A program made the translations under genes and the position numbers. Below are positions 1 through 25,556 of a stretch of DNA of 64,000 nucleotides, one piece after another. The DNA is from Alphaproteobacteria bacterium (GTDB taxonomy: Bacteria > Pseudomonadota > Alphaproteobacteria > GCA-2731375), in assembly GCA_965232515.1 (NCBI GenBank), contig CBDDPY010000002.1, forward strand, positions 6,711,573 through 6,775,572, read 5' to 3'. The notes beneath the pieces are model-generated. The model did not search any database and was not told the DNA's origin. It worked only from the letters and a program-made list of their open reading frames with translations. Each line of letters opens with the position of its first letter. Within the stretch, counting starts at the first letter, position 1.

Positions 1-433
1 GCTGTTCTTCCCGCCGCCGAACGTATCGCTGTTGCCGGTGCCGCATTCGCCGTTGGCCTTCCCGCTCTGCAATACCCTGTCGACCATGCTGCCGTTTCTG
101 GTTCTCGGTCGGCCGCGCCGGGTGTTCCTGTTCGGGGTCGACGGCGTCGGGCGGGATGCCGCCGGCGGCGGCGAACGCTACGGGACGAACAATAAGCACT
201 ATCGGTACGCGCCCGCCGACGATCATGAAGAGCGAATGCTGGCGCTCAACCTTCTGGCTGACACGTTGACATTCGGATTTGCGGCGGAGCTGAGTTTGGT
301 CGGCGTATCGCTGATGTACAATTTGCCGATCCCGCCGATCTATACCGTTTCGCCTGACAGCCATATCGATCTGTTTCCAAGGATCGATATCGACGCCTGC
401 ATCGAGATGCTGCGGGCGTCCGACTCCGGCTAA
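1..433 (+). CDS. Partial CDS (C-terminal part, open to window start); hypothetical protein
   Basis: Frame is open from position 2 with no upstream stop. Track ORF 32..433. No recognisable motif. Converges on the methyltransferase gene. Confidence 0.3.
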   Translation, partial: LFFPPPNVSLLPVPHSPLAFPLCNTLSTMLPFLVLGRPRRVFLFGVDGVGRDAAGGGERYGTNNKHYRYAPADDHEERMLALNLLADTLTFGFAAELSLVGVSLMYNLPIPPIYTVSPDSHIDLFPRIDIDACIEMLRASDSG

Positions 434-1419
434 ATCTCAGTCGGCGTCCCCGCGAACCAGAGATTTTCGCCCAGCCGGTGGCGGCAGAGGATCGCCTTAT
501 AGCGCCGGTCGGTATCGGCCATCAGATCCGCGAGTTCGGTCTGCAATTCCGCCGGCAGGCCTGCATTGAGCGGTAATCGGGCTGGCCCCAGTCCCTGATG
601 CGCCGATGGCTGCGGTTCGTCGCGCAGCGCCCAATGCAGATGATTGAGCATGTTGTAGTCCTGCGCATAGCTCACCTCGCCCCTGACGCCGGCGCGCGCC
701 AGGACGGCGCTCAGCGATGCCGCGCTGAAATACCAGAGATGGGCCTTGTGATAGTAGAAGCTCCGGTACCGGGGGGCGTCGTAGAGCGACAGGAGTGGAT
801 CGTCGAGGTTCGGCACTTCGACAACGAGGGTGCCGCCCGGCCGGACATAGCTGGCGAAGGTTTTGCAGGCGGCGATGGGATCGTCAATATGTTCCAGCGT
901 CTGGATGGCGACGACCAGATCGAAGGCGTTTTGGGGCAAGCCGGATTCCGCCAACGTGCCGCTATGGGTGGTCAATCCGAGCTCGTCGCGGGCGAAGGCC
1001 GCCGCGCCGGAATCGAGATCGAAGCCGACCGCTTCGCCCACCCGTTCGTTCAGGTGGGAGAGCAGATGGCCCGTCGAGCAGCCGATCTCGAGCACTCGGG
1101 CGTCGGCGGTCAGATTGGGCGCCAGCAAGTCCAGGCGCTGCTGCTGGTAGTTGACGTGCGCCTCGAAAATGTCGCGGTAATCGGCCGGGCGGCCCGGCGT
1201 CGGTCCATGGTGTTTGCGATATTCGCCGTCGTAGTAGGCCTTCAGGTCGGCGCCGGCATCGTGCTCGCGTTCGAGGATGCCGAGGTCGCAATCCGGACAG
1301 TGTAGAACCCGGCCGGGCCCGTTTCGCAGCTCCGTCGTCAAGACGGCAAGATTCTGTCGGCCACAGAGATAGCAGGCGGTCGCAGACGTTTCGGCATGCG
1401 GTTGCGGCATTGCGGTCAT
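430..1419 (-). CDS. Class I SAM-dependent methyltransferase with N-terminal CxxC...CxxC zinc ribbon
   Basis: 329 aa. Contains VLEIGCSTGHLL (SAM-binding motif I) and N-terminal CYLCG...CPDC. Confidence 0.7.
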   Translation of the reverse strand: MTAMPQPHAETSATACYLCGRQNLAVLTTELRNGPGRVLHCPDCDLGILEREHDAGADLKAYYDGEYRKHHGPTPGRPADYRDIFEAHVNYQQQRLDLLAPNLTADARVLEIGCSTGHLLSHLNERVGEAVGFDLDSGAAAFARDELGLTTHSGTLAESGLPQNAFDLVVAIQTLEHIDDPIAACKTFASYVRPGGTLVVEVPNLDDPLLSLYDAPRYRSFYYHKAHLWYFSAASLSAVLARAGVRGEVSYAQDYNMLNHLHWALRDEPQPSAHQGLGPARLPLNAGLPAELQTELADLMADTDRRYKAILCRHRLGENLWFAGTPTEI

Positions 1420-1440
1420 GATCGGGTCTTTGACCTCCGG

Positions 1441-2355
1441 TTAAGCGCTGGCGGAGAGGGCAGGAGCGCTGGCCACGGCCTGCGAACGCGCGTTGGCATT
1501 GACGAATGTTGAGATCTGTCGGTGGGTTGAATCCGGGGTAAATCCGGTGACCCGCTCGAGCTTGCTGGTGTCGATCCAGAAGCTTGGCGGGCGTTCGCCG
1601 TCATCCACCAGCTCGGAGCGTGAACCACAAAGCTCGCGCATCCGCGCAAGGGTCTCGCGCAGCGGCTGGGGCGCCGTGGCGGCCGCGTTCACGACGTGAT
1701 GGCCGTTGGGACCGGATCCGATCACGTGGTCGACCAGCCTGTTCAGTTCGCTGGCGTCGAGCAGATTGTTGAACGGCCGGTCGCCGTTGACGAAGGTGAC
1801 GGGACGGTTGTCATTGAGCGCCTGCAGCACCTGGCCGATCCAGGCGCGGAAGTAGCCCGGACCGGTGATGCCGGGCAGGCGCAGACACAAGACGTCGCAC
1901 GTGTTCGGCAAGTCCAGCAAGATCTCCTCGGCTAACCGCTTTGTCCGGCCGTAGAGGTTGGGCGCTCGCGGCTCTTCCGTCTCGCGCAGGCACGATCCGT
2001 CGATGCCGCCGTAGACGCTTAGCGTAGAGAGATAGATCAGGCCTCGGACATTGGCCTGATCGACATAGCGGGCAATGTGCAGCGCGCCATCGACATTCGT
2101 TCGCGCATAATCGGTGGCGGTCAGCGTCGGGTCCAGATGCGTGACAGCGGCGGCGTGCACCACCCAATCGACGTCGGTCGGAAGGTCGAGCGGATGCCGC
2201 AGATCGGCCTGCAGGATCCGATGCCGGTCGTCCGCCGGCAGCGACGGCGGCGTGCGATGATAAACGCTGAGGACATGGTGGCCGCGTGCCAGCAAGTCTG
2301 CGGCCATCAGACGGCCGATGAAGCCGCCGGCCCCGGTGACGAGCACGCGGCTCAT
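1441..2355 (-). CDS. NAD-dependent epimerase/dehydratase family protein
   Basis: N-terminal VLVTGAGGFIG Rossmann motif. Start trimmed to MSRVLVTG (cat at 2353-2355). Confidence 0.75.
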   Translation of the reverse strand: MSRVLVTGAGGFIGRLMAADLLARGHHVLSVYHRTPPSLPADDRHRILQADLRHPLDLPTDVDWVVHAAAVTHLDPTLTATDYARTNVDGALHIARYVDQANVRGLIYLSTLSVYGGIDGSCLRETEEPRAPNLYGRTKRLAEEILLDLPNTCDVLCLRLPGITGPGYFRAWIGQVLQALNDNRPVTFVNGDRPFNNLLDASELNRLVDHVIGSGPNGHHVVNAAATAPQPLRETLARMRELCGSRSELVDDGERPPSFWIDTSKLERVTGFTPDSTHRQISTFVNANARSQAVASAPALSASA

Positions 2356-2873
2356 TTTGACCGGTCGGTGGAAAGACCCTCGATGGCGCATTCGACCGCG
2401 CGCAGCAGCCGTCGCCGCCCTGCCTTGTCATCGGCGGCCGGCGCCCAGTCGGGGTAGGTGGCGTCCCGGTCGGGACGGAACGGCCCTGGCTTGGTCTCGT
2501 GATAGACGCACCAGCCGCTGAGCGGGTAGACCATGTGATATTGCCCGACCTCGATCCGGTAGATCAGGCAATCGTGACCGAGACGGGCGATGTCGACGAT
2601 CTCGCCGTCGTCGTCGAAGACGATCGAGGCGAGCTGGCCATCGATGATCTGGTGCCCCTCGGCCTTTTCCAGATGCTTGTGCGGGCGGCAGTAGATCCCC
2701 CGCCGTTGCACGATGATCATCTGGTGAAAAGCATCGTTCCGGTCGCCGTGAATACAGATACGGGCGTTGTCGACCTTCTCGGCCTGCGCCGTTTGCTTCA
2801 GCCAGGCAATGATGTCGGGCCCGATCCCGCCCCTGGGATCGGTCTGCACAAATGACAACGACGCCGCGGACAT
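2352..2873 (-). CDS. WbuC-family cupin fold metalloprotein
   Basis: ICIHGDRNDAFHQMIIVQRRGIYCRPHKH cupin motif, typical of WbuC in O-antigen clusters. Start taken at MSAASLSF (cat 2871-2873). Confidence 0.6.
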   Translation of the reverse strand: MSAASLSFVQTDPRGGIGPDIIAWLKQTAQAEKVDNARICIHGDRNDAFHQMIIVQRRGIYCRPHKHLEKAEGHQIIDGQLASIVFDDDGEIVDIARLGHDCLIYRIEVGQYHMVYPLSGWCVYHETKPGPFRPDRDATYPDWAPAADDKAGRRRLLRAVECAIEGLSTDRSK

Positions 2874-3177
2874 GTCCTGGCGCAGGCCAGATGGAACGGT
2901 CAGCTGGGCGGTCGGCTCGGCCGGCGCGACGGGGGGCTGGGCGAGGGCCGGCACCGGTTAGATCCCGGACCCGCCTGATGTTGATGCCGGCATATCGGAC
3001 CGATGGACCGCTACGACCGTGCCGTTGGGCGTACGCGAAGCGACGCCGTATGGACATGCCTTACGCATGCGTTAATTTTGCGCCGTCTATGCTTAACAAA
3101 CGTTTACCGACCGCCTGCCCCCGGGGGCAGGCGCCGGCGGTTGTCGCGACGGCGTCCGGCGCTATATAAGGCGCGCA

Positions 3178-4304
3178 TGGAACGGATCGATCTCGATGGT
3201 CTCCAGAGAGGGGCGCGGGTTGTCGTGGCCATGTCCGGCGGCGTCGACTCGTCGGTCTGCGCCGCGCTTTGCCATGAGGCCGGCTATGACGTCATCGGCA
3301 TCACGCTGCAGCTCTACGACCATGGCCAGGCGGCGCGGCGCCCCGGCGCCTGCTGCGCCGGCGTCGACATCCATGACGCCAAGCGGGTGGCCGAGCGCCT
3401 CGGCATTGCCCACTATGTGCTCGACTACGAGGATCGTTTTCGCCAGTCGGTGATGGACGATTTTGCCGACAGCTATCTTGCCGGCGAGACGCCGGTGCCT
3501 TGCATCCGCTGCAATCAGACCGTGAAGTTCCGGGATCTCCTGGGCACCGCCCGCGAGCTTGGCGCCGAAGCGCTGGTCACCGGCCACTATGTCCGCCGGG
3601 TGGCGGGCGAGGCCGGCCCCGAACTGCACCGCGCCGTCGATGCGGCGAAGGACCAGAGCTATTTCCTGTTCGCCACGACCGCGGCCGAGCTTGATTTCCT
3701 GCGCTTGCCCCTGGGCGAAATCGCCGACAAGGCGGCGACCCGGGCGGTCGCCCATCGCCATGGCCTGCCGGTGGCCGAGAAGGCGGACAGCCAGGACATC
3801 TGCTTCGTACCGCAGGGCCGCTATGCCGAGGTGATCGAGCGCCTGCGTCCGGGCGCGGCCGATCCCGGCGAGATCGTCGACCAGGCGGGCCGGGTGCTCG
3901 GCCGGCATGACGGTATCATCCATTTCACCATCGGCCAGCGCCGCGGCCTGGGCCTCAGCATGCCCGAACCGCTCTACGTGCTGCGGCTGGAGCCCGAAAC
4001 CCGGCGTGTCGTGGTCGGCCCACGGGCGGCATTGCTGGAGCGGCGCATCGTCCTGAAGGACGTGAACTGGCTGGATAGCGCGGCCGTGCCGCCGGCCGGC
4101 CGGGCTGTCGGCGCCCGCATCCGCTCGACCCGGCCGCCGGTCCCGGCCACCGTCTTCGCGGCGCTGGATGGGCATATCGAGGTCAGCCTGCACGAGCCTG
4201 AAGCCGGTGTGGCGCCCGGTCAGGCCTGCGTGCTCTACGACGGCAGCCGGGTTTTGGGCGGCGGCTGGATCGCCCGCGCCGAGGGCAACCGCGCCGCCGC
4301 TTGA
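3178..4304 (+). CDS. mnmA: tRNA-specific 2-thiouridylase MnmA
   Basis: [15 protein letters not shown]-loop, then DYEDRF and CIRCN motifs. 375 aa starting at MERIDLDG. Confidence 0.9.
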
Positions 4305-5032: not shown

Positions 5033-8000
5033 TTGTCTCGCGCGCGACTGGCCCCGGTGCTGCTGCTTCTTGCGCTCTTTTCGTCGAGCCACGAGGCGCG
5101 GACGGCCGACACGCAGGATGGATACGCAGGCTCCAAGGCCTGCGAAGGCTGCCACACCTACATTTACAACCAGTGGCGGGGCACACGGCATAGCTTCTCC
5201 GTCAAGACGCCGGCCGAGGCGCGATCCGCCGGTTTCCCGTTGCCCCGGCCACGCCAAGGCGGCGGCGAGCTAACGATCCGGTCGTGGGACGACGTCGCTT
5301 ACGTCATCGGCGGGCGGCAACGTATCGCCTATGCGGATGCCGCGGGTCGCGTTCAGGACACCAGCTATCACCATCGGACCGGGGGTTGGGATGCGTTTCC
5401 AACCAAGCCCATGTCCGTGTGCGGCCCGTGCCACTACACCGGCTTCGGCGTGGGCCCCGAACATTCGGACAATCCGGTGCTGCCCGGCCGCTGGGTCGAG
5501 CGAAACATCGGCTGCGAAGCCTGCCACGGACCGGGCGCGCGCCACGTCGAGAGCCTGGAGAAGGCGGACATCCAGGCCGACCCGTCGTCACGCGTCTGCG
5601 GTCAATGCCACACGGCGGTGGGCAAGGTCCTGCCCAAGGGCGAGCTGCATGCGACCCACGATCTGGTGCAGGGCTGGAACCAGGACCCGCACGTCACCGG
5701 CGTCCGCTGGAATTCCGACAACGCCTTCTGCGCGCGCTGTCACGCGCCCTATCAGGGCCACATTCCGGAGGCTGGCGAGGGTGCGGCGCGTCGGGTCTTT
5801 TCCGAGACGAAGCGGAACATCACCTGCATCGGCTGTCACAATCCGCATCAACTGACCAATGCGAACTATGGGCCTGACAACGTCTTGCTGACGCCGCCGC
5901 TGCCAATCCCGTGGCATACCCACGAAGGCCATGATGCGGACTTTACGACCACCGACTACAAGGCCTGGGACAGCACCGATGAGGTCTGCGAACGCTGCCA
6001 CCGGGGGGCGGATCGGGTCGATCTGGATCACGCCAACGCGACGTGCCAGGACTGCCACAATCAGTTCAACCGCAACCATGGACGCGAGTCCCGACGGCTC
6101 CACGACGCCAACCACCCCGCGTTGAGCTGCCGTGGCTGCCATGAGGATGCCGACCACTTAATGGCGGTGCTTTACCGGGATCCCGACTTCCTGGCGCCAA
6201 AGCACATCCACAACCTGAGGACATTGCCGGCGCGGGCGCGGACGAAGTATGGCTTCCGCTACGCGGAGCTGATCCGGCCAGGCGCGCTGGCAACGAACGT
6301 CTCGATCCAGGAAACAGCGGCCGCGGTCGCAGAGCAGAACCCGAACGGCGATTTGCCGAACCAGCCAACCGTCATTCGGCAGACCGGATCTGCTCACCAC
6401 GAGGCGCTGCGCGAACTGCTGTCAGCGCCGGTCCACCGCCGCCTCGCCGGGGACGAGACCGTGTCGGCGAAGCAACGGGCTCTATCCGAGGCGCCCGACT
6501 CTGTCGGTCGCTATCTCGACCTGGCTGATGTCTACGCGGGGCAGGGTGAATTCTCGGCGGCACGGGAGATTATCGCGCACGGGCTGGCGCTCGACGCGAG
6601 CCGGCTCCTGCTGGAGCTGCCCTTCGGCCGAGACGCGGACAGGTCCGACATGGGCGAGACGGCCGAGGCCAGGGCTCGCACATTATTGCCGCCGTCCGCG
6701 TTGCCGGGCGAGGAGGCCCTTCGAGCTTGGCTTCAGGGCTATCTGGAAATGACCGAAGGACGCTTCGCGGACGCCGCCCGGACGTTGGCGTCCGTGCAAG
6801 CGGGTTCGACCGAGCGCGTGTCGTTGCGATTTCATCTGGCGCTGGCCGAGTTGGGGCAAGGCCGCTATCGCGAGGCGCTCGTGGCAATCAAGGCGAACCT
6901 TCGTGCGAACCCTGAGCACCGGGCATCGAAAGTCGGGCTCGGATTCGTGCACCTCGCTCGGCGCCGATCCAAGCCCGCGATCGAGGCGCTGACGCGGGCG
7001 ATCGCCGACCATCCCGGTGACGCCGCGGCGCTCTATATTCTGGGGCGCGCTTATCTGACTGGCCGGGATATGGCCAACGCCGTTCAGGCCTATCGGGCCG
7101 CGGTCGATGCCGATCCCAATTTTCTCTTGGCCCGGTTCGACATGGCGCGGGCCTATGGCTTCGGCGGACGACCCGATGCGGCGACGCGCGTTTATCGAGA
7201 AATCGTCCGCCGCCAGCCTGGTCTGTTTCAGGCCCGGTTCGAGCTTGCCAATGTCTTGAAGCTGCTGAGCGACAGGCTGGCCTATCAGCTGCAGTCCGCG
7301 CGCGAGACCAGCCCGCCCACGGACATCAGCGTCGCGCGCTGGCGGGACCGCCTGTCCGGTTGGGAGCGGGAAGTCGAGAAGTTCCGGGATCTGGCGCTCT
7401 CCGAGCTGGCGATCGCGGCCAGTGTCAGACCCTCGGCGATCGAGGTGATCCGGCAGGTGGCCGAGATCTACCGGCAGTCTGGGCGCCTGTCCGAGGCCGA
7501 GCGGTTCTACCGGTGGCTGGCACGCCGCCAGCCCGAATGGTGGCTCTACCGGTATCGGCTCGGTGTCGTTCAAATCAGGCAGGGCCGCGACGCCGAGGCG
7601 ATCGAGACGCTGACACGGGCGCTGACGATGGCGCCGACGGACGGTGACACCTTTCTTGCGCTCGGCCTGGCGCAGATCCGCGCCGGCCGACTTGACGCCG
7701 CCATCGACACCTTCGAGCGCGGCAGGATCTACGAACCGTTCAATCCGGCTCTCTACACCAATCTGGGCGCGGCATATGCACGCCGCGGCAATCTCGAACA
7801 CGCGAGCGCCGCGCTCGAACGTTCGCTGGAGCTCGCCAGCTTTCCGCTGCCGCGTGTGCACCTGACACATACGAATCTCGCCATCGTGCGTATCAGGCAG
7901 GGCCGCCCCGAGGCTGCGGCTCAGTCGCTGAGACGCGCCCTGCACAGTTTTTCGCAGTACGCCTATGCCCGCGAGCTGCTCGACAGGCTGAATGCGGGTG

Positions 8001-8098
8001 AGCATCTGCACGAAGCTGACTCGCCGCCCGACGTCGTCTTCAACGATCTGCTCGAGCGCTTCGGCGAGGTCACGACGGTCGCGTTCGCCAATGACTAG
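5033..8098 (+). CDS. Nine-haem c-type cytochrome fused to a C-terminal TPR-repeat domain
   Basis: TTG start with GGAGA RBS and a signal peptide. Nine CxxCH motifs in the first roughly 370 aa: CEGCH, CGPCH, CEACH, CGQCH, CARCH, CIGCH, CERCH, CQDCH, CRGCH. Residues roughly 480-1000 are TPR-like A/L/R-rich helical repeats. Confidence 0.7.
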   Translation: MSRARLAPVLLLLALFSSSHEARTADTQDGYAGSKACEGCHTYIYNQWRGTRHSFSVKTPAEARSAGFPLPRPRQGGGELTIRSWDDVAYVIGGRQRIAYADAAGRVQDTSYHHRTGGWDAFPTKPMSVCGPCHYTGFGVGPEHSDNPVLPGRWVERNIGCEACHGPGARHVESLEKADIQADPSSRVCGQCHTAVGKVLPKGELHATHDLVQGWNQDPHVTGVRWNSDNAFCARCHAPYQGHIPEAGEGAARRVFSETKRNITCIGCHNPHQLTNANYGPDNVLLTPPLPIPWHTHEGHDADFTTTDYKAWDSTDEVCERCHRGADRVDLDHANATCQDCHNQFNRNHGRESRRLHDANHPALSCRGCHEDADHLMAVLYRDPDFLAPKHIHNLRTLPARARTKYGFRYAELIRPGALATNVSIQETAAAVAEQNPNGDLPNQPTVIRQTGSAHHEALRELLSAPVHRRLAGDETVSAKQRALSEAPDSVGRYLDLADVYAGQGEFSAAREIIAHGLALDASRLLLELPFGRDADRSDMGETAEARARTLLPPSALPGEEALRAWLQGYLEMTEGRFADAARTLASVQAGSTERVSLRFHLALAELGQGRYREALVAIKANLRANPEHRASKVGLGFVHLARRRSKPAIEALTRAIADHPGDAAALYILGRAYLTGRDMANAVQAYRAAVDADPNFLLARFDMARAYGFGGRPDAATRVYREIVRRQPGLFQARFELANVLKLLSDRLAYQLQSARETSPPTDISVARWRDRLSGWEREVEKFRDLALSELAIAASVRPSAIEVIRQVAEIYRQSGRLSEAERFYRWLARRQPEWWLYRYRLGVVQIRQGRDAEAIETLTRALTMAPTDGDTFLALGLAQIRAGRLDAAIDTFERGRIYEPFNPALYTNLGAAYARRGNLEHASAALERSLELASFPLPRVHLTHTNLAIVRIRQGRPEAAAQSLRRALHSFSQYAYARELLDRLNAGEHLHEADSPPDVVFNDLLERFGEVTTVAFAND

Positions 8099-19980: not shown

Positions 19981-20526
19981 TCAGGGCAACGGAAAGGCAT
20001 CGAGGTAGCCCTGATAGTCGGGCTCGACGTCGATCTCAAGCGTCTCCAGCACACGAACCACGGCGTTGTAGAAGCCGATCACCAGCACCAGCTCGACCAG
20101 CAGCTTGTGGCCGAGCGCGGCTTCGAGTTCGGCATAGGTCGGATCGGCGATCCGCCGCGTTTCCGTCATCTCGCGCGCCGCCCGCAGCACGGCGCGGTCG
20201 AGCGCCGGCAGGCCGCTGTCCTGACCGGCGGACTCCGCGGCAATCGCTCTGACGTCGTCGTCGCTGACGCCGAAATCGCGGCCGATGCCGATGTGATGGC
20301 TATATTCGTAGGCGCTGCGCGCGAGGTAGCCGACCTGCAGAATAGCCATCTCGCGCAGGCGCGGGTCCAGCGAACTCTCGTAGCGGATCCAATGCCCGAG
20401 TTTCTGGAAATGCCGCGTGCCGTCGGGGCTGTGCGTCAGCGCCCGGTAGAGATTGATGTTGCGCTTCAGCAGGTCGCGGTCGTCTTCGGCGAGGTCCGGC
20501 GGGTCGAGGTAGGGCAGGCGCGCCAT
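19981..20526 (-). CDS. Carboxymuconolactone decarboxylase (AhpD-like) family protein
   Basis: AILQVGYLARSAYEYSHH motif of the CMD/AhpD family. Confidence 0.7.
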   Translation of the reverse strand: MARLPYLDPPDLAEDDRDLLKRNINLYRALTHSPDGTRHFQKLGHWIRYESSLDPRLREMAILQVGYLARSAYEYSHHIGIGRDFGVSDDDVRAIAAESAGQDSGLPALDRAVLRAAREMTETRRIADPTYAELEAALGHKLLVELVLVIGFYNAVVRVLETLEIDVEPDYQGYLDAFPLP

Positions 20527-20538
20527 CGATCCGGCCTC

Positions 20539-21345
<807 letters not shown>

Positions 21346-21379: not shown

Positions 21380-21826
21380 TTAAGGCAAGTCCTTCAACAC
21401 CTCGTCCGGATGATCGGCGGGCGTCACCTTGGCATAGACCTTGGCGATGCGGCCTTCCGGATCGATCAGATAGCTGATTCGCGCAGGATATTGCGCGTCC
21501 GCTGAGTCGGCCGCCCCATAGGTCATGCTGATGGCGCGGTCCTCGTCGCACAACAGATCGTAGGGAAAGCCGAACTTTTCTTGAAACGCCCGGTTCTCCG
21601 CCGGCGTATCGCAGCTGATCCCGAGCACGATGGCGTTCTTGGCTGTGAAGTCTTGGATTCGATCACGGAACCCTTTGCCTTCAATGGTTCAGCCGGGGGT
21701 GTCAGCCTTCGGATACCACCAGAGAACGACGTAGTGCCCCCGATACTGATCCAGTGAGGTCTGAATCCCCTGCTGGTTCGGCAGCGAAAAGGCGGGGGCG
21801 ACATCCGCCTCATTCAACAAAGCCAC
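21380..21826 (-). CDS. Bcp-type thiol peroxidase (peroxiredoxin) with in-frame TGA at the peroxidatic Cys position; candidate selenoprotein, or a pseudogene
   Basis: Hand translation of the minus strand gives MALLNEADVAPAFSLPNQQG...HYVVLWWYPKADTPG-[TGA 21689-21691]-TIEGKGFRDRIQDFTAKNAIVLGISCD...LKDLP. Collinear with E. coli Bcp (PGCT). GTG start with an AAAGGAG RBS. Confidence 0.55.
21647..21688 (-). ncRNA. Candidate SECIS-like stem-loop immediately 3' of the in-frame UGA
   Basis: mRNA positions +7 to +42 after UGA: GAAG(GCAAA)GGGUUC[CGUGAUC]GAAUCC(AAGA)CUUC. A 4-bp plus 6-bp interrupted stem with a 7-nt apical loop containing G/U 23-24 nt after the UGA. Confidence 0.35.
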
Positions 21827-21927
21827 GCGAGTCTCCTTTCCATTGTTGACGAGATAGAAACAAAAGATAATTGAACAAAAACAGTAATTTAAAAGCTTGT
21901 TCTCATGTTTTATCGAAGTTTGACGAC

Positions 21928-22176
21928 TTAGCCGTCATCCGGCGTTTCCAAGCGGATGGCGAACGGGATGCCGTCAGCCGTGCCACGCAAGACAACGGCT
22001 GGGTTGCCGCCTGCGATCGCGGTGTCACCTGGGGCTGGCGTTGCCTGAGGCGTGGATTCGGCCTCACGGGCATCCGCGCCGGCGAACAGGTCATCGAACT
22101 GTTTTCGGCTCTCCGCCAAGAGGCTGTCGAAGGCGTCCGACATGCCGCCAACGTTGCTGTCCGAATCAGACGCCAT
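21928..22176 (-). CDS. Small acidic hypothetical protein
   Basis: 82-aa ORF directly downstream of the isochorismatase-family gene. No motif. Confidence 0.25.
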   Translation of the reverse strand: MASDSDSNVGGMSDAFDSLLAESRKQFDDLFAGADAREAESTPQATPAPGDTAIAGGNPAVVLRGTADGIPFAIRLETPDDG

Positions 22177-22182
22177 CGGTTT

Positions 22183-22893
22183 TCAGGCGTCCACCTTGGG
22201 GCGTTCGTTCCACCAGCGCTGGAAGTTTTCGTTCGCGGTGCCGCCTAGACCGGCGCTCGCCACCTGCTTGATGTACCCCAGCGCTTCGTCGGCCGAGACC
22301 ACGTCGCAGTATTTGGCGTCGAGGTCGAAGAGGTTCGCCTCGTGCGGTCCGTCGGCCCGGTCGCCGACGGCCTCGCGCACCACGATGGTGAGATAGCCGC
22401 TCTGCATCGAGTCGAGCGCCGAGGCGCGGACGCAGCCGCTGGTCGTGCAGCCCGTGACGATGACCGTGTCGACTCCCTGCGATTTCAGGTAGGCGTCGGC
22501 GTCGGTGCCGAAGAACGCGCTGGCGAATTTCTTCTCGACAACATATTCGCCGGGCTGCGGCCGGAGGCGGTCGTCGATCTCGACCATGTGCGAGCCGCGC
22601 CGCAGGATCGACAGCGACGGCACTTTCTTGATGAACACGCCGGCGTCGCGATAGTCGGCGTCATAGGCCGTGGTCGTATAGACGATTGGCAGGCCGCCGA
22701 GCCGGAACGCCGTCAACAGGTCCTTCGTGACCGCGATCTCGTTCGTGAGATCGCCGCCGAGCGGGGTCGACGGGTCGGTGAAGCCGTTGATGAAATCGAC
22801 GATCAGCAGCGCCGGCTTCTGGCCGTAGCCCGAGCGGACGGCGAAGCCCTTCTGCTCATAGTCGTCCCGCGTGCCGCGCTGCCAGTCGTTCAT
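22183..22893 (-). CDS. Isochorismatase-family cysteine hydrolase (N-carbamoylsarcosine amidase-like)
   Basis: LLIVDFINGF...VVEKKFASAFFGT...TVIVTGCTTSGCVRAS. Start trimmed to MNDWQRG (cat 22891-22893). Confidence 0.75.
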   Translation of the reverse strand: MNDWQRGTRDDYEQKGFAVRSGYGQKPALLIVDFINGFTDPSTPLGGDLTNEIAVTKDLLTAFRLGGLPIVYTTTAYDADYRDAGVFIKKVPSLSILRRGSHMVEIDDRLRPQPGEYVVEKKFASAFFGTDADAYLKSQGVDTVIVTGCTTSGCVRASALDSMQSGYLTIVVREAVGDRADGPHEANLFDLDAKYCDVVSADEALGYIKQVASAGLGGTANENFQRWWNERPKVDA

Positions 22894-24171: not shown

Positions 24172-24507
24172 ATGTGCAGCCTCTGCGGCGTGCTCGGCGG
24201 CCGGGGCCACTGGACGGAAACGGCCAGCAACCCGGACGCTTTCCAGAGCCGCGCCGAGACCCATACCTGGCATCGTGAGCGGCAGACCCGAACGCGGCTC
24301 GTCAACGCGGTGCTGCGGCACTACGGGCTCAAGCTTGATGACTGGTCGGGCAACGCCTACATGCTGCGCAGCAAGACCGGCCGCACGGCGCTGGTCGACA
24401 ACCTGACCGAGGTCTGGACCGCGGCCGAGCAGATCGGCCGCGGGGTCTGCGACCCGCTCGACGAGGACTTGCTGGCGTCCTTGTCCGATTCCGGGTCGGC
24501 GCGATGA
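24172..24507 (+). CDS. Hypothetical protein (N-terminal CxxC)
   Basis: 111-aa ORF starting MCSLCG. ATGA overlap with the downstream CobW gene. Confidence 0.35.
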   Translation: MCSLCGVLGGRGHWTETASNPDAFQSRAETHTWHRERQTRTRLVNAVLRHYGLKLDDWSGNAYMLRSKTGRTALVDNLTEVWTAAEQIGRGVCDPLDEDLLASLSDSGSAR

Positions 24508-25556
24508 CCGACTATGCCGCCCTGATCCCGATCAACGTGATCACCGGCTTTCTCGGCAGCGGCAAGACCAGCCTGCTGCAGCGGCTGCTGGCCTCGCCAA
24601 GCCTGTGCGATACAGCGGTGCTGGTGAACGAGTTCGGCGAGGTCGGGCTCGACCACCAACTGCTGCAGCATGTCGCCGAGAGCACGCTGCTGCTGGACAA
24701 CGGTTGCCTGTGCTGTGCCGTGCGCGGCGATTTGCAGGACTCGTTGCGGCAGCTTTTCTCGCAGCGCGAGCGCGCCGAGATCTCGCCGTTCCGCCGGGTC
24801 GTGATCGAGACATCCGGCCTCGCCGATCCCGTGCCGATCGCCTACACCATCTTGGCCGAGCCGGTGATCCAGCATCATTTCCGTCTCGGCAACGTGGTCA
24901 CCACCATCGACGCGGTGAATGGCGGACAGCAACTCGACGCCTACCCGGAATCGGTGAAACAGGCAGCCATCGCCGACCGCGTGGTCGTGACCAAGACCGA
25001 TCTGGACGAGGAGGGACGTTTCGGCGCCCTGGAGCATCGCCTCCGGCAACTCAATCCGTCGGCGCCGGTGATCCGCGCGGCGGACGGGGTGCTGGACCCC
25101 GAACAGCTCCTGGCCCAGGACGTCTACGATGCCGACAGCAAGCAGCGGGACGTCGAAGACTGGCTCGCCGCCCACACGGTGTCGACCGAAAACCAGGGTG
25201 GCCACGACCATACACACGGCGTCGCGTCGTTCTGCCTGACCTTCGATGCGCCGCTCGACTGGACGGCGTTCGGCATCTGGATGACCATGCTGCAGCACCG
25301 GCATGGCGAGAACGTGCTGCGTATCAAGGGCATGCTGAACGTCGCGGGTCAGTCGGCGCCGGTGCTGATCAATGGCGTCCAGCACATCGTGCACCCGCCG
25401 ACCCATCTCGACGCCTGGCCCGATGCCGACCACCGCTCGCGCATCGTTTTCATCACGCGCGGCCTCGACCAGGCGCGCATCGAAGCCTCGCTTGCCGCCT
25501 TCAACCGGTTGGCAAATCCCGTCGCGGCGCGGATGCCCGTCGACGCCTTGGCCTGA
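24504..25556 (+). CDS. CobW/COG0523-family G3E GTPase (metallochaperone)
   Basis: INVITGFLGSGKTSLL P-loop, a CxCC motif (GCLCCAV) and an ETSGLADP switch. Confidence 0.85.
   Translation: MTDYAALIPINVITGFLGSGKTSLLQRLLASPSLCDTAVLVNEFGEVGLDHQLLQHVAESTLLLDNGCLCCAVRGDLQDSLRQLFSQRERAEISPFRRVVIETSGLADPVPIAYTILAEPVIQHHFRLGNVVTTIDAVNGGQQLDAYPESVKQAAIADRVVVTKTDLDEEGRFGALEHRLRQLNPSAPVIRAADGVLDPEQLLAQDVYDADSKQRDVEDWLAAHTVSTENQGGHDHTHGVASFCLTFDAPLDWTAFGIWMTMLQHRHGENVLRIKGMLNVAGQSAPVLINGVQHIVHPPTHLDAWPDADHRSRIVFITRGLDQARIEASLAAFNRLANPVAARMPVDALA

Follow-up and report, generated by a model that had tools for sequence, protein, structure and literature searches.

Peroxiredoxins (Prx) with selenocysteine (Sec) in the active site have been described by Zhang & Gladyshev from Sargasso Sea and Global Ocean Sampling (GOS) data. 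The family is listed as 'Prx (pfam00578), TxxU', with 253 sequences in 34 GOS samples (PMC2398784 Table 2), and ranks among the most abundant selenoproteins of surface-ocean metagenomes (PMC2398784). For sequenced organisms, 91 Prx genes were counted in 78 organisms (PMC5029168), and a 2026 review gives the family the motif PxxxTxxU (PMC13188914). The gene described here lies in a stretch of 64,000 nucleotides from an alphaproteobacterium (contig CBDDPY010000002.1 of assembly GCA_965232515.1), which is referred to as the window. It encodes a peroxiredoxin of the Bcp/PrxQ type and contains one in-frame TGA at the codon of the peroxidatic cysteine. On the strength of sequence comparison, this TGA is very probably a genuine Sec codon that is served by a functional selenocysteine insertion sequence (SECIS); the main doubt attaches to selA, selB, selC, and selD of the source genome.

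The selenoprotein subfamily to which the window Prx belongs is not new, having been published in 2008. In the 2008 GOS supplement, the section '#Peroxiredoxin' contains reads with WWYPKADTPGUTIEGNGFRDRIQDF, for example, JCVI_READ_560720, which is 58% identical to the window Prx over 122 residues. The window gene and the Prx TxxU family have the same Pfam domain, the motif PxxxTxxU with Sec, a bacterial SECIS (bSECIS) just downstream, and many Cys homologs. No substantive difference was seen between them—what is new is the sequence of the window copy, which comes from an uncultured-type alphaproteobacterium and carries no annotation as a selenoprotein. Existing knowledge of selenoproteins and peroxiredoxins is left unchanged by it. 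A first-pass annotation of the window, made from the nucleotide sequence alone, had placed Sec-containing peroxiredoxins mostly in anaerobes. This view is outdated, given the abundance of the family in the surface ocean (PMC2398784) and the composition of Sec users, ~40% of which are aerobes and 36% anaerobes (PMC5029168).

The same annotation had mentioned PrxU-type proteins as a comparison. PrxU is a Sec-containing 2-Cys-type peroxiredoxin from Eubacterium acidaminophilum and related anaerobes, and it shares with the window Prx the superfamily and the location of Sec at the peroxidatic position. It differs in its length (model of ~233 aa), its AhpC/Prx1-like character, its subfamily, its host organisms, and its SECIS. 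Membership in PrxU was rejected, as the window Prx scores 34.7 bits against the 270-bit cut-off of the NCBIfam model peroxi_PrxU (NF040737); it belongs to the separate Prx TxxU selenoprotein family. The Cys-containing counterparts are the Bcp/PrxQ proteins (Xanthomonas campestris BCP 3gkk, 5iph, 5iiz; Sulfolobus Bcp1 3drn; E. coli Bcp PRK09437), which have in common with the window Prx a size of ~150 aa, the fold family, the YPKxxTPGCT loop, and the catalytic Arg. In contrast to these, the window Prx has Sec for the peroxidatic Cys and lacks a resolving Cys at either Cp+5 or the alpha-3 position.

The reading frame and its TGA codon across species

The minus strand from 21826 to 21380 can be read as 148 codons in one frame, which is interrupted only by the TGA at 21691..21689 and closes with a TAA terminator of its own at 21382..21380. 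The product reads VALLNEADVAPAFSLPNQQGIQTSLDQYRGHYVVLWWYPKADTPG-TGA-TIEGKGFRDRIQDF...VLKDLP-TAA, in which the N terminus begins with VALLNEADV and the stretch WWYPKADTPG immediately precedes the TGA. Herein, no frameshifts or extra stops occur, and both the ribosome-binding site (RBS) and the start codon are intact. The first-pass annotation had proposed one continuous Bcp homolog with a GTG start at 21826 and the RBS AAAGGAG, and the same frame, start, and RBS were recovered. Mechanical calling of open reading frames (ORFs) splits the locus in two, a C-terminal ORF of 82 aa (21380..21628) and an N-terminal one of 45 aa, which accounts for the split that had been noted in the first pass. The gene is thus real and complete, yet split or truncated by standard pipelines, so that the chief consequence of the finding is a correction of the annotation.

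Entered with C in place of U, the protein sequence is matched by Pfam PF00578 (AhpC-TSA) over residues 8–129 with E=1.3e-32 and 112.8 bits (cut-off 26). Among the matches to solved structures, the top nine are of the BCP/PrxQ type, as are most of the 17 listed, with best values of E=5e-23 to 1e-19, and the alignment to solved BCP structures runs over the full length. The best NCBIfam scores are those to PRK09437 (110.2 bits, cut-off 140) and Deinococcus PrxQ (101.7 bits, cut-off 260), both of which are under the respective cut-off. In the active-site segment P39-K-A-D-T43-P-G-U46, the TGA position coincides with the peroxidatic Cys of TPGCT in solved BCP/PrxQ structures (5iph, 3gkk), which bears out the placement at the peroxidatic Cys of a Bcp-type Prx that had been made in the first pass. 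R116 aligns with the conserved catalytic Arg of solved BCPs. None of these four active-site residues (P, T, U, and R) varies among the 81 orthologs, this number denoting the Sec-form set that was also used for codon counts.

No resolving Cys is present at Cp+5, as all 81 orthologs have K, N, or Q there (K51 in the window), and none is present in the window protein at the alpha-3 position used in Xanthomonas (Q82). Other Cys residues are poorly kept—C72 in 23/81 and C93 in 26/81 orthologs. Because no resolving Cys is conserved, the window Prx would be of the 1-Cys/1-Sec type.

Orthologs were collected by scanning one genome per species (GTDB representatives) with peptide patterns that omit the Sec site, which gave 80 loci. 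TGA occupies the orthologous codon in 80/80 of them. The metagenome-assembled genomes (MAGs) that carry these loci are labeled as Alphaproteobacteria/Rhodospirillaceae, Gammaproteobacteria, Gemmatimonadetes, Latescibacterota, and Verrucomicrobiales. The nearest locus (L001, from MAG PL25a_bin.159) shows 93% identity, TGA, and intact synteny with the window; another of the nearest relatives, at 78% identity, also has TGA. Between the window and L001, the 44 codons before the TGA differ by 13 synonymous and 2 nonsynonymous changes (omega ~0.03), and the codons after it by 26 synonymous and 7 nonsynonymous changes (omega ~0.06). These ratios indicate that strong purifying selection acts on the parts of the gene on both sides of the TGA.

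Cys forms with TGC at the peroxidatic codon were found at the DNA level in three loci (L083, L084, and L086), so that Sec/Cys pairs exist at this position. The alignment of homologs that had been suggested in the first pass hence yields Sec-TGA at the orthologous codon in all 80 related loci and TGC in these three Cys forms. The contrary outcome considered there, namely near relatives with TGC or TGT and a hairpin that is not conserved, was the opposite of what was found.

Public protein sets reflect the gene poorly. At the Sec position, the best 120 clusters of a protein search have Cys (PGCT) in 40 cases and 'W' in 54, and ~22 are fragments. The latter are either 101–104 aa long, starting two codons past the Sec site ('MEGKGF...'), or 82 aa long, starting further in. 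Two 'W' clusters were checked at the DNA level in metagenome contigs, and W corresponds to TGA. The 'W' calls are gene-caller artefacts from short contigs called with code 4 (UGA=Trp), because the gene call of L088 likewise reads past its true stop (...ADLG*KLSRP*). Systematic mis-annotation of this kind is seen in clusters among P0002-P0104 and in contigs L087 and L088. The same error is present in the ortholog of every one of the 80 species-level genomes examined and in dozens of metagenome protein clusters.

The hairpin downstream of the TGA codon

The archetypal bacterial SECIS elements are those of E. coli fdhF and fdnG, which are bound by SelB; the fdhF element contains a bulged U. Like them, the window hairpin is a stem-loop that follows the UGA immediately inside the coding sequence and whose small loop exposes G-U at a fixed distance, in keeping with the consensus model (PMC13188914). 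It differs in that no sequence similarity exists and that SelB binding is a prediction for the window.

The hairpin starts 6–7 nt 3' of the UGA. Counting the U of UGA as 1, the lower stem UGAAG/CUUCA is formed by positions 9–13, (U)GAAG, with 42–46, CUUC(A), and is separated from the upper stem by the internal loops GCAAA and AAGA. The upper stem GGGUUC/GAAUCC pairs positions 19–24 with 32–37, which corresponds to 21673..21668 with 21660..21655 of the window. It is closed by the apical loop CGUGAUC at positions 25–31 (window 21667..21661), in which G and U lie 23–24 nt past the UGA. The two stems GAAG/CUUC and GGGUUC/GAAUCC, the loop, and the placement of G-U had all been drawn in this way in the first pass.

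The bSECIS model specifies a loop of 3–9 nt, an upper stem of 4–16 bp, and, at loop position 1 or 2, a G that is usually followed by G/U (PMC13188914). It further specifies a distance from UGA to loop of 16–37 nt and a minimum free energy (MFE) of <= -7.5 kcal/mol (PMC13188914). The window hairpin lies within all of these bounds, with a loop of 7 nt, a stem of 6 bp, G-U at loop positions 2–3, and a spacing of 21 nt. Its energy amounts to -8.0 kcal/mol for the 36-nt core and to -10.3 kcal/mol as the MFE of UGA..+60, and the upper stem has an ensemble probability of 0.7–0.98.

The case for a hairpin beyond chance comes from comparative sequence data and not from energy. Across 74 distinct sequences, 97.4% of the cells are paired, compared with 12–64% when the hairpin frame is slid. 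The window contains the 19-nt core motif a single time, against a chance expectation of 0.05 occurrences. In place of covariation, synonymous codon entropy was determined over the 81 Sec-form genes with an internal Arg control. Relative synonymous entropy is ~0.6–1.0 at most conserved amino-acid positions as opposed to 0–0.38 of the maximum in the hairpin codons. Phe53 is encoded by TTC in 80/80 genes, Arg54 by CGT in 81/81, and Ile57 by ATC in 71/71. Asp55 is GAT in 75 and GAC in 6. Where variation occurs in the stem, the pairing survives it: Gly52 is GGG in 69 and GGA in 12 genes, both of which preserve the pair with U, and Arg56 is CGA in 67 and AGA in 14, both of which preserve the G-A needed by the stem. 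Gly50 is encoded by GGC/GGA/GGT in 68/11/2 of the Sec-form genes. The control residue Arg116, which lies outside the hairpin in the same genes, is encoded by CGC (48), CGG (25), CGT (5), CGA (2), and AGA (1). Synonymous sites are hence frozen exactly across the hairpin, and the locus provides a clean and deeply sampled example of an in-ORF SECIS that freezes them.

Cys forms are much more variable in their amino acids across this stretch than Sec forms. In L083, a Cys form with 71% identity to the window Prx, the corresponding codons read GGT TTC CGG GAT CGG TCC, and the hairpin is lost. L084 (3001–3450, 52% identity) and L086 (120–572, 62%) have TGC and yet an intact hairpin sequence, GGA/GGG TTC CGT GAY MGA ATC C. 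The latter two have the appearance of Sec-to-Cys conversions that retain a fossil SECIS.

Decoding of the UGA codon

The machinery for Sec decoding is found next to the gene in relatives. On the gammaproteobacterial MAG contig L012, the Sec-Prx (3853–4296, +) is divergent from selA (3708..2254, -), and the two are 145 bp apart. selA is followed by selB (~2290..218, -), whose 3' end contains a tRNA-Sec (317..222, -). A nested selB/tRNA-Sec arrangement was reported by Mukai 2021, as cited in PMC9312934. In L057, a tRNA-Sec (6106–6200) is located 2.9 kb downstream of the Sec-Prx (2757–3194), and no recognizable selB lies beside it within the 7.6-kb contig. The presence of a Sec-Prx marks the source alphaproteobacterium as a probable Sec user and predicts selA, selB, selC, and selD elsewhere in its genome.

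Altogether, the Sec reading advanced in the first pass gains support from the TGA in 80/80 loci, the Sec/Cys pairs, the agreement with the bSECIS model, and the frozen synonymous sites. Several results weigh against it. Within the 64-kb window, no homologs of SelA, SelB, or SelD were detected with E. coli and closer proteobacterial probes, and no tRNA-Sec was found, the single tRNA there being that for Met. The energy of the 62-nt stretch is no better than that of shuffled sequences (z = -0.32), and a competing structure is marginally better and represents the MFE there. In the covariation test, two-sided compensatory changes were absent from the stem, which is nearly invariant, and the shuffle control was uninformative. 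An Rfam scan at the gathering threshold and a sensitive scan matched no SECIS family to the hairpin. The hairpin is moreover kept in the Cys forms L084 and L086, so that its presence alone is no proof of current Sec decoding. The sole Rfam match was Acido-Lenti-1, which is weak (E=0.36), unrelated, and was set aside.

Of the alternatives, a relic survives best, though it is improbable. Here, the lineage once decoded UGA as Sec and the source genome lost the Sec machinery, leaving a recently stranded pseudogene that ends at codon 46. The lack of sel genes and tRNA-Sec in the 64-kb window would fit such a loss, and the Sec-to-Cys conversions in L084 and L086 show that the trait is evolutionarily labile. 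The gene, however, displays no decay: frameshifts and further stops are missing, the RBS and start are in place, and the SECIS is perfect. With omega of 0.03–0.06 against L001 on both sides of the TGA and synteny to L001 intact, the loss would have to be very recent.

Still less likely is that UGA is read as a plain sense codon, by reassignment to Trp or Gly, or by leaky near-cognate readthrough that gives Trp or Cys without Sec machinery. Low-level near-cognate readthrough of UGA occurs in bacteria, and the 54 of the best 120 database clusters that are translated with W could be taken to favor this explanation. However, such calls also run through genuine stops, as in L088, and an enzyme with Trp as its peroxidatic residue would be catalytically dead. 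UGA serves as the normal stop of 17/30 other Pfam-supported genes in the window, which implies the standard code, and genetic-code reassignment was therefore rejected. Neither variant explains the conserved hairpin or the linkage to selA, selB, and tRNA-Sec in L012. Least probable of all is an artefact of sequencing or assembly, or a nonsense mutation private to this assembly. A single substitution would turn TGC or TGT (Cys) into TGA, but cross-species conservation effectively refutes this explanation: the codon is TGA in all of the independently assembled genomes of 80 other species, many metagenome contigs have it too (behind W calls and truncated fragments), the nearest relatives (93% and 78% identity) share it, and the codon constraint in the hairpin is specific to the TGA clade.

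With the TGA taken as a Sec codon, the gene would encode a 148-residue thiol-peroxidase-type Prx of the Bcp/PrxQ group with Sec (U46) in place of the peroxidatic Cys. The hairpin would offer its apical loop CGUGAUC, 21 nt past the UGA, to the Sec elongation factor SelB, which in turn would bring Sec-tRNA(Sec) to the ribosome instead of release factor 2 at the UGA (21691..21689). In the folded enzyme, the selenolate of U46, placed by P39, T43, and R116, would attack a peroxide (H2O2 or an organic hydroperoxide) to give a selenenic acid. As a 1-Sec enzyme, it would probably draw electrons for its re-reduction straight from a thiol donor of the thioredoxin or glutaredoxin type. Substrate, reductant, SelB binding, and selenium incorporation are for the window Prx predictions drawn from its sequence.

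Genomic neighborhood

The features of the locus are compiled in Table 1.

Table 1. Positions of the Sec-Prx gene, its signals, and the conserved neighbor in the window.
Feature	Position	Strand	Basis and remarks
Isochorismatase-family hydrolase	22183..22893	-	PF00857, E=1.1e-36; upstream of Prx, same strand
Shine-Dalgarno AAAGGAG	21833..21839	-	6-nt spacer to GTG; direct sequence reading
GTG start codon	21824..21826	-	N terminus MALL... agrees with full-length homologs P0001, P0004
Sec-Prx coding sequence, Bcp/PrxQ-type	21380..21826	-	Continuous frame, AhpC-TSA match, 148 codons + TAA, Sec46; active-site P39, T43, U46, R116
UGA codon, read as Sec (U46), PxxxTxxU motif	21689..21691	-	TGA in relatives, TGC in Cys forms, peroxidatic Cys in solved BCPs
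Predicted bacterial SECIS hairpin, within coding sequence	21646..21683	-	Folding, pairing in relatives, frozen codons

In a tblastn search with the window neighbors, the gene for the isochorismatase-family hydrolase is the only neighbor that is conserved across relatives. It precedes the Sec-Prx on the same strand in 29/80 loci (among L001-L046) with 59–87% identity, in MAGs of Alpha- and Gammaproteobacteria. Its true start is probably M56 (22893) of a 291-aa ORF that reaches 23058, because the alignments begin near residue 52–56. The hydrolase may be a functional partner of the Sec-Prx or be co-transcribed with it. Between the two genes, an 82-aa ORF (21928–22176, -) shows no Pfam match and is weakly conserved in L001 only (51% identity); it is possibly coding. 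In the AT-rich spacer of 101 nt from this ORF to the Prx start, no match to the sigma-70 consensus was found.

In at least five phylum-level groups the 19-nt SECIS core is nucleotide-invariant, and the Cys copies L084 and L086 still have it. The GC content at third codon positions (GC3) of the Prx gene is 0.73, compared with 0.88 for the SDR gene and 0.85 for the CMD gene, which are its neighbors at 19981–21345. The low value is partly due to the SECIS, which forces A/T-ending codons. Seen alongside the spread of a near-identical SECIS over several phyla, it may also hint at horizontal acquisition. A farther-reaching and rather doubtful proposal is a mobile two-gene module of hydrolase and Sec-Prx with a dedicated shared substrate pathway, whose portable SECIS would have spread horizontally and been accepted by very different SelBs.

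Downstream, the SDR gene follows the Prx gene at a distance of 34 nt, and the SDR and CMD/AhpD-like genes are common to L001 only. The CMD/AhpD-like protein (19981..20526, -; 181 aa) has a CMD domain, zero Cys, and no in-frame TGA, and it reaches 22.5 bits as opposed to 175 for AhpD-related selenoprotein models. Judged from its sequence, it is neither an AhpD-type redox protein nor a selenoprotein candidate. A link to this AhpD-like neighbor, drawn in the first pass, was therefore dropped: the gene is two genes away from the Prx gene, lacks any CxxC or CxxU, and is shared with L001 alone.

A search of the window for other TGA-bridged genes by GC3 was not discriminating, as the Prx gene itself was not among its hits, which were antisense frames and ordinary neighboring genes. 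The gap at 26.1–28.4 kb was considered as a second interrupted gene and rejected, since it holds an intact hydantoinase A. ORF clustering of the neighbors was confounded by spurious high-GC ORFs, and tblastn was used instead. A CobW/COG0523-type GTPase (24172–25556, +; 350 aa, after a 111-aa ORF) is located 2.7 kb from the Prx gene and contains no TGA; CobW-related proteins include a described selenoprotein variant (PMC13188914).

The window is ordinary chromosomal DNA with 65% GC, and its genes include MnmA, tRNA-Met, Liv-type ABC transporters, hydantoinases A and B, the CobW-like GTPase, GroES/GroEL, and PhoD. An unusual 1021-aa protein (5033–8098, +), which is unrelated to the Prx, weakly matches multihaem cytochrome c-type proteins over its N-terminal third and has many TPR repeats toward the C terminus.

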